Shown here: one piece after another, positions 1,887 through 16,140 of the stretch
Numbering within the stretch: the first letter of the stretch is position 1
How the letters are laid out: each line of letters opens with the position of its first letter
DNA from: a virus
Lineage: Duplodnaviria; Heunggongvirae; Uroviricota; Caudoviricetes
Reading direction: 5' to 3' (one strand)
DNA length: 16,314 nucleotides
IMG/VR virus record: IMGVR_UViG_2695420398_000002
Location: 1 to 16,314 of that record
Notes under the pieces: model-generated
Seen by the model: the letters and a program-made list of their open reading frames with translations, nothing else
Told to the model about the DNA's origin: nothing
The model's database searches: none
Position numbers and translations under genes: made by a program

Positions 1887-2380
1887 TGCTGCCCCCACAA
1901 ACAGACTTCACGCTCAATATCACGACGGGTCATCAGCCCTTTCCATTGCTTACCGCCAGCGTATGTCCAGCGACGTAGCTGGTCACATGCGCCTTTGATA
2001 TCACCCTGGTTTATTTTGCGAAGAAGCGTCGATGTTCTGAAATTACCAGCGCCCACGTTGTAAACGAACGAGTAAAGAGCGCCGCGCGTTGTTTCCGGTA
2101 TATCGACGTTGATGTACGGGTTAATTTGTCTGGCGACCGTGGCAAGGTCTTTATTCAAGAGTGCTTTGCATTCTGCTTCGGTATACGTTTTACCGGGCAT
2201 GATGTCTTTTCCGGTGTGTCCGTGACATACAGTCCATACGCCAACGATATCTTCGTATGGTATGTAGCTGACACCTTCCAGACCATCGTTACCACCTGGA
2301 CCAGTGATGAGCACAGACGCTATGGCAACAGCCCCACCACCAATAGCAGCTGCAACAGCCTTGCGTAATGACGGCGACAT
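1883..2380 (-). CDS. R: SAR (signal-arrest-release) endolysin, phage 21 R21-type lysozyme
   Basis: N-terminal weakly hydrophobic Gly/Ala-rich SAR segment ([21 protein letters not shown]) followed by a lysozyme core; near-identical to phage 21 R as recalled. Its start overlaps the holin stop. Confidence 0.9.
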
Positions 2381-2586
2381 TATTCACCTCTCGCAGCCTT
2401 ACGCTTATCTTCTTTAATCTTGAAATAAAGATTTGTCAGATACGTCAGCAGGCCAAACAGCAGACTTCCCAGCACACCTATTGCCACCCACTGGGACGGA
2501 GAGACTTTGTCCAGCAGCTGCAGTAACCAGTATCCCGTCCCCACCGCTGACGTGGTGTATGACACACCTGTTGTGATTTTTTCCAT
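2380..2586 (-). CDS. S: Pinholin, phage 21 S21-type
   Basis: 68-aa protein with two TM segments and a charged C-terminus ([13 protein letters not shown]), near-identical to S21 as recalled; GGAGA Shine-Dalgarno upstream. Confidence 0.9.
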
Positions 2587-2630
2587 CTGATGTATGTCTC
2601 CGTCACCGCCGACAGAAAATGAAAGTAAAG

Positions 2631-2667
2631 AAAAACAAAAAAGCCGCCAGTGTCACCCACTGACGGC
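2631..2667 (-). terminator. Strong Rho-independent terminator about 45 nt upstream of the holin start (tR'-like)
   Basis: Minus strand GCCGTCAGTG-GGTGA-CACTGGCGGC (10-bp stem including one G-U pair) followed by TTTTTTGTTTTT. Confidence 0.6.
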
Positions 2668-2841
2668 CAACACCGGGAGCCGTGATTATGGCATTCAGGC
2701 TCTGCTAAAAATGCCAGATAACATTCCGGCCTCCCCCGATTCAGGTTATAAATGACACAATATCTTGACAACATCCGTCACTGTCTGTCAGAAAATGTAC
2801 TGCCATATAGAAGCAACATGTGAAGTACATCTATCCTTTTG

Positions 2842-2884
2842 AGCCAGCACCTCTCCACCGAAAGTCAGTGCTGGCTGTTTTTTT
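2842..2884 (+). terminator. Plus-strand hairpin plus T7 run (terminator-like), copy A of a tandem module
   Basis: AGCCAGCAC ... GTGCTGGCT 9-bp inverted repeat with a 17-nt loop, followed by GTTTTTTT; about 45 nt downstream of a TTGACA -35 element at 2765-2770. Confidence 0.4.
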
Positions 2885-2991
2885 CCTTAATAAAGCATCT
2901 GTAACTGAAACAATCCGCATATTGATAATATATTGACAGGCATCATTGCTGTCTGTGAAAAATAAGTCTCTACAAACATATAAGGCCTTTT

Positions 2992-3033
2992 AGCCAGCGT
3001 CTTCTTTTTCAGGTCAGTCGCTGGCTTTTTTTA
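2992..3033 (+). terminator. Plus-strand hairpin plus T7 run (terminator-like), copy B of a tandem module
   Basis: AGCCAGCG ... CGCTGGCT 8-bp inverted repeat with a 19-nt loop, followed by TTTTTTT; preceded by TTGACA at 2933-2938. The T-run abuts the nanS stop codon. Confidence 0.4.
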
Positions 3034-4884
3034 TTATGCTGCCGGTGCATTTATCTCCAGCACCAGACTTTCTATCTCAACGCCATACGCTGCATTTTTT
3101 GTAACATCCGTCAGCGTCAGCGCATTCAGTCCCAGTGTCAGACTGTCTTTTATAACCTGGAATGCCGGGCCAGCCACTCCATTCAGTTTCGGAGTAACCG
3201 TGGCACTGCCGGCGGTGAACACCAGCTCCAGCGTCTGCCAGTCGTTACCGTAATCGCCGAACTCCCCCAGCTTCGTGTTTCCGGCTTTCCTGTGATGCAT
3301 CAGATTCACTCTGCCGTCAGTGGTCTGAGTGAAGTACGACATCAGGAACGGATTACCGGTACCCGTCATCGCCACACCATCAGGAACGGGAGCATCCGTA
3401 TACAGATAAATCCCCAGCCCGAACTGATTGTTGGTCAGTGCGCCTGACAGGCGGAACTTACAGGTCAGTCTGCCGCCCTGTGTCAGCAGGGTAATTGCGT
3501 CATCCACCGGATGCGTCAGGGACCAGGTTTTATTGCTCTGCTTGGTGATCTTAAATACACCATCTGACAACTGAATTCCGCCATCCTTAATGCTCCAGCC
3601 CTGCGCAGCAGCCTCTCCGGCTGCCGGCAGCAGGGAGATTGTGCGAACGGACGTATCTGCAGACGGACCCGATGGCGTGTTGCCGCCGGGCGAGGGTTTG
3701 ATTTCCGGTGCCTTACCACTGATGAAGGCTGAGGTGCGCCCGGCTGCGTTCAGAATAGCGGTTGCCAGACGATCCGGAATAATGCTCCTGCGCGCCCATG
3801 AACTGAAATGTGTCGGGCGGTTTGATGATACCTGGTTTCCATTCGTTCTCGATGCCGCACCGTAATATCCTGATGCCGGAATATCCGGATCTTCTGCCGG
3901 CGCGTTAGTGGCGGTATTGACGCCGTTACCGTCTGTCATGAAGGGCACAAAATAAACGCCCTCACTCTCCCTGTTTTTATACCCGCCGTACACGGTGTCG
4001 TACTGGGTAGCGTATGTATTTTTCCAGTAATACGTCGTGTCACCACAAATCCACGGCACATCTACAGCGCTGCCACCATGGCACTGCGCGTTAAACACGG
4101 AGAGGTCAGCACGAAACTGTGTCAGCATGGCTGTAAACAGCGCAGGTTGCTGTGCGTGGGTGGCGGCACTCATGTCAAACTCACCCTGCATCCAGCAGAC
4201 GGCCAGCAGAACGTTTTTGGGATTTTTCTGCAATGCCGCTTTTGTGCGGGAAATCAGATCCTGATATAACGGCTTGCCCACCCCCCAGCGTGCCGAATCC
4301 TGACTGGCCCCCGTGGACTCGCTGAATGTCCCCTCCGCGCCCTGGGTAAATGCCGAACCACCACGACAGCATGGTACCAGCAGGATCCCCGCGTTATTCG
4401 GGATATACGGGAGCAGTTTTTTGGCAATATGTAAACCCTGGCCGACACAGCCGTACTGCCCTTTGCTCAGGTCAGCCCTCGGATGATTCAGCGTACTCAT
4501 ATCCTGCACATCATGCAGACAGTGGTCAGCCGGAATAATATCGTTATATCTGCAGGCAGCCCCGCCCGGCGTCACTGTACTGCGGCGCGCCAGCTGTTTA
4601 ATGCGCGGATCCGGAGCATCGTATGAATCCGGCAGCGGAAGCCCTTCACCGTAAGCCATGGCATTGGACTGCCCGGCCAGTACGATGACGTAGTACCAAT
4701 CCGGCTCAGATGAAGGGCCGACCTGTGGCTCTCCTTCAATAGCCACCGCCTGCATCAGTGTGTACGGCGTAATGGCAACCGGTCCGCCGTATGGCTGCCA
4801 GCCCTCTTTCAGTTTGTGTGTCAGCTTTTCCGCAAGGTCTGACGGCGACGCCGCCCTGACAACATCGTAATGTTTAATCGACAT
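3034..4884 (-). CDS. nanS: Prophage sialate O-acetylesterase, NanS-p-like (DUF1737-like N-terminus plus SASA/SGNH esterase domain)
   Basis: 616-aa ORF with a GQSN esterase motif (YVIVLAGQSNAMAYGEG) and strong GGGAGAAA Shine-Dalgarno; sits between Q and the lysis genes, as NanS-p does in Stx and related prophages. Confidence 0.75.
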   Translation of the reverse strand: MSIKHYDVVRAASPSDLAEKLTHKLKEGWQPYGGPVAITPYTLMQAVAIEGEPQVGPSSEPDWYYVIVLAGQSNAMAYGEGLPLPDSYDAPDPRIKQLARRSTVTPGGAACRYNDIIPADHCLHDVQDMSTLNHPRADLSKGQYGCVGQGLHIAKKLLPYIPNNAGILLVPCCRGGSAFTQGAEGTFSESTGASQDSARWGVGKPLYQDLISRTKAALQKNPKNVLLAVCWMQGEFDMSAATHAQQPALFTAMLTQFRADLSVFNAQCHGGSAVDVPWICGDTTYYWKNTYATQYDTVYGGYKNRESEGVYFVPFMTDGNGVNTATNAPAEDPDIPASGYYGAASRTNGNQVSSNRPTHFSSWARRSIIPDRLATAILNAAGRTSAFISGKAPEIKPSPGGNTPSGPSADTSVRTISLLPAAGEAAAQGWSIKDGGIQLSDGVFKITKQSNKTWSLTHPVDDAITLLTQGGRLTCKFRLSGALTNNQFGLGIYLYTDAPVPDGVAMTGTGNPFLMSYFTQTTDGRVNLMHHRKAGNTKLGEFGDYGNDWQTLELVFTAGSATVTPKLNGVAGPAFQVIKDSLTLGLNALTLTDVTKNAAYGVEIESLVLEINAPAA

Positions 4885-4970: not shown

Positions 4971-4997
4971 AAAAAAAAGGCCGCGCCATGCGCAGCC
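4971..4997 (-). terminator. Rho-independent terminator about 90 nt upstream of nanS
   Basis: Minus strand GGCTGCGC-ATG-GCGCGGCC (8-bp GC-rich stem, 3-nt loop) followed by TTTTTTTT. Confidence 0.55.
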
Positions 4998-5183
4998 AGA
5001 ACTCACAAGGAAAATGATAGAAGGAAATAACATTAGTGATGTACGCATGGCGCCTCCCGCTAAGTTCTGCAATGATCAAACAGAACTCGCTACGTGCCCT
5101 TAAAACTCGATCATTTAGCCCCTCCAAGGAGGATTCACCATGCGGTTGGTTTTTTAATAAACAGTAAACAAAAAAGTCAAGAA

Positions 5184-6423: not shown

Positions 6424-7047
6424 CTAACGTGTGATCGCATTCAAAATGTTGTCTGCGATTGACTCTTCCTTGTGGCATTGCACAACCAGAGCGTCATACA
6501 GCGGCTTAACAGTGCGTGACCAGGTGGGTTGGGTAAGGTTTGGGATTAGCATCGTCACAGCGCGATATGCGGCGCTTGCTGGCATTCTTGAATAACCGAC
6601 GCCTTTACATCTTCCGCACTCTTTCTCAGCAACTATCCCCCACTGCTCTGTTTTGGCTATATCAACCGCACGGCCTGTACCGTGGCAATCTCTGCATCTT
6701 GCGCCCGGCGTAGCGGCACTACGGCAATAATCCGCATAAGCGAATGTTGCGAGCACTTGCAGTACCTTTGCCTTAGTATTTCCTTCAAGCTTTGCCACGC
6801 CACGGTATTTCCCCGATACCTTGTGTGCAAATTGCATCAGATAGTTGATAGCCTTTTGTTTGTCGTTCTGGCTGAGTTCGTGCTTACCACAGAATACAGC
6901 CATTCCGAATCCGGCTTGTGATTGCGCCATCCCCATAGCAGCCATCACATCAGTACCGGAAAGAGAGTCAGAAGCCGTGGCCCGTGGTGAGTCGCTCATC
7001 ATCGGGCTTTTTGGCGAATGAAATTTAGCTACGCTTTCGAGTCTCAT
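6424..7047 (-). CDS. Q: Late-gene antiterminator Q (lambda-type)
   Basis: 207 aa, essentially identical to lambda Q as recalled, including the CRDCHGTGR...CGRCKGVG zinc-binding region. Confidence 0.95.
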
Positions 7048-15903: not shown

Positions 15904-15975
15904 GCGCGGCGTTACCGCATACCAATTACGCTTCACTCGAGGCGTTTTTCGTTATGTATAAATAAGGAGCACACC

Positions 15976-16140
15976 ATGCAATATGCCATTGCAGGGTGGC
16001 CTGTTGCTGGCTGCCCTTCCGAATCTTTACTTGAACGAATTACCCGTAAATTACGTGACGGATGGAAACGCCTTATCGACATACTTAATCAGCCAGGAGT
16101 CCCGAAAAATGGATCAAACAATTATTGCTATCCAGACTAA
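15976..16140 (+). CDS. cIII: CIII (FtsH/HflB protease inhibitor)
   Basis: 54 aa [48 protein letters not shown]... essentially identical to lambda CIII as recalled; AAGGAG Shine-Dalgarno. Confidence 0.9.
   Translation: MQYAIAGWPVAGCPSESLLERITRKLRDGWKRLIDILNQPGVPKNGSNNYCYPD

Follow-up and report, generated by a model that had tools for sequence, protein, structure and literature searches.

The gap between the esterase and pinholin genes of this lambdoid prophage holds two homologous units on the plus strand, each built of TTGACA, a 10-nt gap, CTGTCTGTnAnAAA, a hairpin and a T-run. We consider it likely that they are two tandem sRNA genes directed toward the 3' end of the esterase gene and against the late operon. 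Judged by sequence identity, the first (unit 1) is almost certainly the published prophage sRNA PasA. The second (unit 2) is very probably a true paralogue of it that gives an Hfq-bound RNA, the one recorded in EHEC Sakai as EcOnc51 and EcOnc52. The feature is already known, with Hfq peaks published in 2014, PasA in 2021 and a survey in 2026, and what we describe is a rediscovery. Beside the corrected identity of EcOnc51 and EcOnc52, the sole new point is the tandem-paralogue relation that we read from the sequences of units 1 and 2.

The window, that is, the whole stretch of 16,314 nt that was analysed, is a lambdoid prophage of mosaic make-up whose late operon occupies the minus strand, as judged from its ORFs and Pfam matches. 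By the same evidence the late genes run in the order Q antiterminator (6424-7047), a 252-aa ORF, esterase, pinholin and lysozyme (1883-2380). The stop codon of the esterase gene is at 3034-3036, and both units sit in the 447-nt gap that separates it from the pinholin gene (Table 1). This gap is 99.3-99.8% identical to that of many EHEC/EPEC prophages, Stx1a phages, phage YYZ-2008 and the classical phage 434; none of the complete E. coli genomes of the collection matches more than 87% of the whole window. Two small ORFs (2594-2755 on the plus strand and 2478-2774 on the minus strand) gave no match in a Pfam search. A strong terminator of the late strand lies 45 nt 5' of the holin start codon and is also annotated in the phage 434 record; it belongs to the context of the sRNA genes and is separate from them.

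The resemblance of the two units is far beyond chance. The 16.3-kb window contains two occurrences of the pattern TTGACA-N10-CTGTCTGTNANAAA and no more, one in each unit on the plus strand, and 0 of 200 dinucleotide-preserving shuffles of the window contain it. Global alignment of the units gives 86 identical columns among 103 aligned, with a score of 31.5 against 6.5 +/- 2.3 in shuffles (z = 11), a score reached by 0 of 2000. The -35 elements are 168 nt apart and the hairpins, each reading AGCCAGC(A/G), 19 nt, (T/C)GCTGGCT, are 150 nt apart. The blocks conserved between the units are AATATnTTGACA, CTGTCTGTnAnAAA, CCTTTTnAGCCAGC and GTCAGTnGCTGGCT plus the T-run, which correspond to the -35 element, the extended -10 element, the UUUU-stem junction, and the 3' arm with its T-run. 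What has diverged is the promoter spacer (3/10 identical) and the RNA body: local alignment recovers the 3' arm and T-run alone, and the 5' body of unit 2 can be aligned only with gaps. An earlier sequence-only reading had proposed two similar promoter-plus-terminator units on the plus strand, antisense to the late operon, and the coordinates, the alignment and the shuffles all bear this out.

Table 1. Features of the two-unit locus and of its flanks, in window positions
Feature	Position	Strand	Basis and remarks
P21-type class II holin (pinholin) S	2380..2586	-	ORF; Pfam Phage_holin_2_1, E = 1e-32; first downstream lysis gene on the late strand
Strong intrinsic terminator, late strand	2632..2668	-	Terminator scan: 11-bp stem, 7 G-C pairs, T-run
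Unit 1 -35 TTGACA	2765..2770	+	6/6 consensus; 29 nt upstream of the published PasA 5' end; putative promoter element
Unit 1 CTGTCTGT	2781-2788	+	10-nt gap after TTGACA
Unit 1 extended -10 TGtCAGAAA	2786..2794	+	Hexamer CAGAAA 3/6 consensus, 18 nt from -35; putative
Unit 1 A-rich CAGAAAAT	2789-2796	+	Sequence reading
PasA sRNA, major 85-nt form	2800..2884	+	100% identity to mapped NC_011601 743499-743415 (-)
Minor 236-nt PasA isoform	2800..3035	+	First terminator read through, end at unit 2 terminator; Table S6 of PMC8550237 converted by alignment
PasA intrinsic terminator	2842..2884	+	Fold: 8-bp stem AGCCAGCA/UGCUGGCU plus inner pairs, G, U7; UUUU 5' of stem
Unit 1 stem arms AGCCAGCA and TGCTGGCT	2842-2849 and 2869-2876	+	G at 2877, seven T at 2878-2884
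Predicted PasA seed GCCAGCACCU	2843..2852	+	Text of Fig. S5 of PMC8550237; unchanged in the window
Inter-unit spacer	2885..2932	.	A/T-rich 5' of the second -35; TTGATA at 2922-2927; kept with unit 2 in plasmid copies without PasA
Unit 2 -35 TTGACA	2933..2938	+	6/6 consensus; putative promoter element
Unit 2 CTGTCTGT	2949-2956	+	Followed by GAAAAAT at 2957-2963
Unit 2 extended -10 TGtGAAAAA	2954..2962	+	Hexamer GAAAAA 3/6 consensus, 18 nt from -35; putative
Unit 2 RNA, ~66 nt	2968..3033	+	Diverged PasA/PasC paralogue, EHEC Sakai EcOnc51 and EcOnc52; predicted 5' end
Unit 2 intrinsic terminator	2992..3033	+	Fold: stem AGCCAGCG/CGCUGGCU plus U-run; abuts the esterase stop codon
Unit 2 stem arms AGCCAGCG and CGCTGGCT	2992-2999 and 3019-3026	+	Seven T at 3026-3032
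SASA/DUF1737 NanS-like carbohydrate esterase	3034..4884	-	ORF; Pfam DUF1737, SASA, DUF6645; convergent with both sRNA units

Unit 1 and the published sRNA PasA

PasA was found by Hfq RIL-seq in EPEC E2348/69, where Northern blots gave its size and showed that its stability depends on Hfq (Pearl Mizrahi et al. 2021, Sci Adv, PMC8550237). Table S6 of that paper places the major, 85-nt form on the minus strand of NC_011601 at 743499-743415, and a minor form of 236 nt with the same 5' end (743499) and its 3' end at 743264. Over window positions 2580-3045 an alignment with the PP2 locus of E2348/69 shows 3 differences in 466 nt, none of them within 2738-2893. Because the published map converts exactly over this near-identical locus (window = 746299 - record), PasA can be placed at 2800-2884. 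The first RNA expected from the sequence-only reading, with a 5' end near 2800 and a 3' end at the T-run, matches this mapped RNA. The 3' end of the 236-nt form falls at window 3035 (record 743264), so that this longer PasA RNA ends at the unit 2 terminator.

Other evidence agrees. The published PasA Northern probe, GCCAGCACTGACTTTCGGTGGAGAG, is the reverse complement of window 2852-2876, and a covariance model built from PasA/PasC variants scores 106.8 bits at PasA in the window. Unit 1 shares with PasA, without any difference in sequence, the 85 nt themselves, the promoter region before them, the terminator and the predicted seed, as well as strand and location. Host and prophage differ, and expression has been shown for E2348/69. 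On identical or near-identical sequence, then, experiment supports the 85-nt and 236-nt RNAs, the dependence of PasA abundance on Hfq, and the RIL-seq partners. Three marks of PasA are found here: the mapped 85-nt sequence, a place between the esterase and holin-lysozyme genes and on the strand opposite to them, and a 3' stem-loop with poly-U and seed. The same synteny (esterase, pasA, holin, lysozyme) has been described for pasA with phage NC_011356 as an example (Zhu, Shabalina and Storz 2026, bioRxiv 10.64898/2026.05.13.724894), and this phage matches the window gap at 99.6%.

The predicted PasA seed overlaps the 5' arm of the terminator stem, an overlap that has been noted as unusual (Zhu et al., 10.64898/2026.05.13.724894). 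Both hairpins have the make-up of an intrinsic terminator, an 8-bp stem followed by 6-7 U, with nominal loops of 19 nt that are atypical. Folding, proposed earlier as a check, gives the stems in both units and adds inner pairs that shorten the long loops. The stem has 5 G-C pairs among 8 bp in PasA and 6 among 8 bp in unit 2, and the unit 2 fold has z = -3.5. Seven T residues had been read after each hairpin. This holds for unit 1, where G and then T7 follow the stem; in unit 2 the first of the seven T is the last base of the stem, and six T follow it. With nominal loops as long as 19 nt, the hairpins largely escape a generic terminator scan, which lists no more than an inner sub-stem in unit 2. 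In the curated phage 434 record OL657226 both hairpins are annotated as terminators on the same strand.

It had also been suggested that known prophage sRNAs be searched for through Rfam. This route gave nothing: at the gathering threshold and at E up to 10 there is no credible match in 2300-3400, and PasA is not an Rfam family. Neither unit is in Rfam 15, and neither has an RNA-gene annotation in the matching genome and phage records, in which the region should now be annotated as pasA plus a pasA-like paralogue.

Might these RNAs act mainly in cis, as antisense RNAs to the Q-dependent late transcript that tune the esterase and lysis genes through cleavage or transcriptional interference? The convergent geometry would suit such a role, for the units are antisense to the esterase-holin part of the late transcript and read-through extends the complementarity to the 3' end of the esterase gene. 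Moreover, the RIL-seq partners of PasA include the 3' ends of both esterase genes, E2348C_0688 and E2348C_1246, and the chimeras contain late-strand RNA over the PasA 5' end (PMC8550237). Nevertheless, we regard a mainly cis-acting role as quite improbable. Most of the 41 RIL-seq partners of PasA are encoded elsewhere in the genome (PMC8550237), and it is in lysogens that these RNAs are made, with the late operon terminated upstream. The holin ribosome-binding site is not overlapped either; the PasA start is 214 nt off and its transcription is directed away.

Unit 2 and the EcOnc51 and EcOnc52 peaks

Unit 2 is so diverged in its body that its similarity to PasA is below ordinary blastn detection. 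A covariance model made from PasA, PasA-2 and PasC variants only does find it: unit 2 is the second-best match (34.8 bits, E ~2e-5), over the full length of the model at 2953-3034 on the plus strand, and the next match on that strand reaches 9.2 bits. Zhu et al. (10.64898/2026.05.13.724894) set PasA against OmrA/OmrB-like pairs, reported that blastn found no copy nearer than 22 kb, and stated that the pasA copies are not tandem duplicates. That survey missed the adjacent unit 2 because its body is too diverged. Contrary to the survey statement, the PasA locus as we read it is a diverged tandem duplication, and per-genome counts of the PasA family miss the copies of unit 2.

In EHEC Sakai, Hfq-CRAC peaks with a predicted terminator were listed as EcOnc51 (Sp12, 2237479-2237555, plus strand) and EcOnc52 (Sp4, 1181998-1182075, minus strand), with no Northern blot, name or function given there (Tree et al. 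2014, Mol Cell, PMC4104026, Table S2). Since that study used an older Sakai record, we calibrated its coordinates to NC_002695.2. The shift is zero at the STnc100 match upstream of ECs_1088 (1.18 Mb) and at the PasD probe site (0.90 Mb), and it is about +138 from 1.27 Mb onwards, as given by the Rfam matches of AsxR, Esr41 and AgvB and by HnrS, which we located by its mazF-complementary segment and terminator. After calibration EcOnc51 and EcOnc52 both fall on the counterpart of window ~2966-3044, which covers unit 2 entirely and leaves PasA out. In Sakai the counterparts of unit 2 lack 2 nt of the loop and have an additional C ahead of the T-run; the rest matches the window. EcOnc51 and EcOnc52 have been cited as homologues of PasA (Pearl Mizrahi et al., PMC8550237). 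This homology holds only in the sense of the 236-nt form; the two entries are the second unit, not the 85-nt PasA. We found no mention of either in the main texts searched.

RIL-seq in EPEC points to the same part of the locus. A fragment from an escD chimera (743267-743294, minus strand) corresponds to window 3005-3032, the 3' end of unit 2. Whenever the feature pasA.E2348C_0688.IGR takes part in a chimera it is the second RNA, as is usual for sRNAs. In simple duplex predictions, on the other hand, neither unit 2 nor PasA paired with escD or with the 3' end of the esterase gene any better than shuffled sRNAs did, which counts against our reading. The published Northern probes for PasA and PasC are both unable to detect an RNA of unit 2 only, so the case for a discrete unit 2 RNA is made by the edges of the CRAC peaks. 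A second RNA from near 2968 to the T-run had been foreseen, and cross-linking to Hfq over unit 2 and the RIL-seq fragment support an RNA there, which may instead be a processed 3' part of the 236-nt transcript. The other possibility raised by the sequence-only reading, that the repeats are the vestige of a non-transcribed element, is excluded for unit 1 and unlikely for unit 2.

Putative promoters and the probable independence of unit 2

The consensus -35 elements and weak A-rich -10 regions that had been noted stand on a fresh reading of the sequence, and from them we infer a promoter for each unit. In unit 1 the position of the extended -10 fits a start at ~2800-2801, in agreement with the 5' end of PasA as mapped from RNA-seq. 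In unit 2 it predicts a start at ~2968-2969, in line with the 5' edges of the EcOnc51 and EcOnc52 peaks at ~2966-2967. A generic consensus promoter scan lists neither promoter, because both -10 hexamers are without T at position 6 (-7). The mature 5' end of PasA has been ascribed to cleavage of a longer transcript (Zhu et al., 10.64898/2026.05.13.724894), which, if true, would weaken the promoter reading of unit 1. Across the two diverged units TTGACA is kept while the adjoining 10-nt spacer differs. The -35 element of unit 2 is intact in 71 of 72 two-unit intergenic regions from IMG/VR, a set chosen with the same promoter pattern; this conservation has little weight, because the intergenic region has spread very recently and is nearly invariant.

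Could unit 1 be the only gene? Unit 2 would then be a back-up terminator and 3' extension, its TTGACA a silent relic, and the Hfq-bound RNA a product processed from the 236-nt transcript. The region is indeed annotated as a minor 236-nt PasA isoform with the same 5' end (PMC8550237), the -10 element of unit 2 is weak and is not called by the generic scan, and Hfq-bound fragments derived from 3' ends are common. Nor does the Sp4 copy, in which IS629 removed everything upstream of the unit 2 promoter region and which is therefore without PasA, prove anything: the unit 2 copies are identical, the CRAC reads are multi-mapping and they cannot be assigned to Sp4 or Sp12. Against this reading, the promoter blocks are the best conserved parts of the two units and the spacer between them has drifted. 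The 5' edges of the CRAC peaks lie at the expected unit 2 start in two loci, although a read-through form of 236 nt also exists. In Sp12 a CRAC sRNA was called over unit 2, but no EcOnc entry lies over PasA-2, which would be odd for a minor read-through product. Finally, plasmid copies without PasA keep the promoter core, and it is the RNA body that has changed: there are 0 changes in the 31 nt from -35 to -10 against ~9 in the 66-nt transcribed part. Taken with its evidence on both sides, a single gene with a 3' extension seems unlikely to us, and we favour, with some reserve, transcription of unit 2 from its own promoter.

The two-gene reading suggests the following mechanism. A sigma-70 promoter with a perfect -35 and a weak, TGn-extended -10 would start the 85-nt PasA at ~2800, and transcription would end at the U7 at 2884. 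Each RNA ends in UUUU-hairpin-U6-7, the usual Hfq-binding layout, and PasA would bind Hfq through this UUUU-hairpin-U-tail module and act in trans by base pairing through the predicted seed GCCAGCACCU. A share of the PasA transcripts passes the first terminator and stops at the second, which gives the 236-nt form. The promoter layout and the type of terminator recur in unit 2, whose 5' body is different and shorter; this unit would yield an Hfq-bound RNA of ~66 nt, most probably from the promoter that it carries. Prophages may exchange 5' bodies and terminators by recombination between the repeated CCTTTT(G/A)AGCCAGC and terminator blocks. Like the promoters, a separate start for unit 2 and this history of duplication and recombination are what we infer from the sequences.

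Relatives, distribution and mosaic forms

The sequence-only reading had mentioned anti-sRNAs reported from this general region of EHEC prophages, and AgvB and AsxR (RF02702, RF02703) are indeed like the window units in being prophage-encoded, Hfq-bound, convergent with a neighbouring gene and located in the lambdoid late region. They are unrelated, however: these RNAs of 50-60 nt are encoded at the opposite flank of the esterase gene, where the moron (stx) is its neighbour, and not between esterase and holin. Neither RF02702 nor RF02703 has a match in the window even at E up to 10, and the same models do find the Sakai loci, so that position and Rfam both reject the identity. HnrS, a 66-nt multicopy prophage sRNA with up to nine copies per genome (Poudyal et al. 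2026, PLoS Pathog, PMC13502914), resembles the unit 2 RNA in having the size predicted for it, in being multicopy in EHEC/EPEC and Hfq-bound, and in its place in the lambdoid late region. The genes are distinct. The Sp12 copy of HnrS is separated from this locus by ~3.2 kb and lies past the spanin genes, and the HnrS sequence, including its mazF-complementary segment, has no match in the window with up to 3 mismatches; we reject this identity by position and by sequence.

The parallels in layout are of another kind. OmrA/OmrB and PrrF1/PrrF2 are tandem duplicate sRNA pairs in which each member has its own promoter and terminator. Like these, the window pair consists of adjacent paralogues on the same strand with conserved ends and a divergent body. 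Unlike these, it has its divergent part in the 5' body and its location in a prophage late region.

A relative in sequence is PasC, a 79-nt sRNA of prophage PP5 of E2348/69 (PMC8550237). It combines the unit 1 promoter with a PasA-2-like 5' body at the same type of locus. It shares with unit 2 the exact terminator stem, AGCCAGCG/CGCTGGCT, and the esterase stop region follows directly. By contrast with the window, PasC is a single unit with a short, 8-nt loop, and its intergenic region is ~277 nt rather than ~431 nt. In PasC-type loci we see this locus in its single-unit state.

Searching IMG/VR for the promoter pattern gave more than 119 contigs, which we classified using only those intergenic regions that are anchored on both flanks. 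The two-unit class of ~431 nt has 72 copies, 71 of them with both promoter patterns; the PasC type of ~277 nt has 24 copies, a single unit of ~285 nt with a PasA-like hairpin has 9, and one further copy carries an insertion. Among 5426 complete E. coli genomes, unit 2 is found at 2303 places in 677 genomes (median 3 per genome, maximum 8), and unit 1 and PasC-type units are found at 2850 places in 692 genomes. Across PasA, PasA-2 and PasC variants the stem covaries, from C-G to U-A at pair 7 and from A-U to G-C at pair 8, and 99.3% of the cells in the stem are paired, against 12-57% when the partners are slid.

These numbers bear on the notion that the units are functionally inert, serving as insulating terminators against stray antisense transcription into the esterase gene and giving RNAs as mere by-products. 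The curated record of phage 434 annotates the units as terminators only, and no PasA phenotype has been published, both as this notion would have it. However, PasA is an abundant, Hfq-stabilised RNA with many specific partners, a perfect -35 precedes each terminator, the stem pairing is maintained by covariation, and about 680-690 of the 5426 genomes retain the units at a median of 3-4 copies. We think it highly improbable that the units are inert. If unit 2 has targets of its own, EHEC and EPEC carry another, unstudied multicopy Hfq-dependent prophage sRNA.

We give even weight for and against a fuller proposal, in which unit 2 has a transcription of its own and a separate function as the third member of the PasA/PasC family, forming a tandem pair like OmrA/OmrB, and unequal recombination creates and destroys PasC-type genes, swapping seeds and terminators. 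Of the 2303 places at which unit 2 was found, 100 are on plasmids; in the plasmid copies, ~90% identical, the spacer and unit 2 are retained along with ~95 nt from the 3' end of the esterase gene, and PasA is absent. A reciprocal mosaic, the body of unit 2 with the loop of PasC, is present in one IMG/VR contig.

Distribution and alleles of PasA and unit 2

PasA, a published Hfq-dependent sRNA, and unit 2, its diverged tandem paralogue, are ordinary lambdoid late-region cargo and are not restricted to pathogen prophages. Both are present, at 99.3% identity, in the classical laboratory phage 434 (OL657226, 2241-2687), and because this phage carries the two of them, these pathogenicity-associated sRNAs cannot be specific to the prophages of pathogens.

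Comparison of the window with the IMG/VR loci (L008-L126) revealed that the 5' half of PasA (window 2797-2839, plus strand) comes in two clearly distinct alleles, PasA and PasA-2, which differ at about 15 linked positions. Across the same loci there is almost no variation in the 3' half of PasA or anywhere in unit 2. This pattern echoes that described for the anti-sRNAs, which have a variable 5' end and a constant 3' end.

Part of the region also occurs on virulence-type plasmids of about 90 kb. On the plasmids, unit 2 is accompanied by the spacer between the two units and by the final ~95 nt of the esterase gene; the fragment lacks PasA and adjoins uilS and IS600. In all, we found about 100 plasmid places with the unit-2 fragment.

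The neighbouring esterase and lysis genes

Near its stop codon, the 3' end of the SASA/NanS-like esterase mRNA (window 3056-3066, minus strand) contains CUGGUGCUGGA, the reported PasA target site in both esterase genes of the EPEC strain E2348/69. This motif is complementary to CCAGCACC of the predicted PasA seed. Duplex prediction for PasA against the esterase 3' end scored no better than for shuffled sRNAs.

Upstream of the esterase gene lies a PasD-type sRNA gene. The Northern probe published for PasD has an exact match at window 4987-5010, and the gene can be aligned with PasD2 of E2348/69. The Rfam model STnc100 stayed below threshold here and reached it at the equivalent loci of EHEC Sakai.

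Two late-strand terminator sites precede the lysis genes, and the stronger one is annotated in the phage 434 record too. Unless polymerase had been modified by the late antiterminator Q, transcription out of the esterase gene would be halted there, before the lysis genes.

Features located in the window and on a plasmid
Feature	Position	Strand	Remarks
Strong intrinsic terminator	window 2632-2668	-	45 nt upstream of holin start codon
Weaker terminator site	window 2713-2730	-	
PasD-type sRNA gene	window 4971-5143	-	upstream of esterase gene; probe match and alignment with PasD2
Strong terminator within PasD-type region	window 4979-4997, then T8	-	
Lambda cIII thermoregulator element	window 15963-16021	+	Rfam, 88.5 bits
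Plasmid fragment example	L005 (plasmid NZ_CP027444.1) 4001-4250		

Sakai coordinates and the ends of the window

The EcOnc coordinates of Tree et al. 2014 (Table S2) equal those of the current Sakai record, NC_002695.2, up to at least 1.18 Mb; starting at 1.27 Mb, the published values lie about 138 nt below those of the record. Reusing them would misplace most prophage sRNAs.

The multicopy prophage sRNA HnrS is not in the window. The sequence at ~380-440 is unrelated to L127 472-537. There, beyond the spanin genes, a different small hairpin (gtgcaaccacggttgcac) stands where Sakai Sp12 has HnrS. Judging by the cIII thermoregulator match, the early left operon lies at the window's far end.
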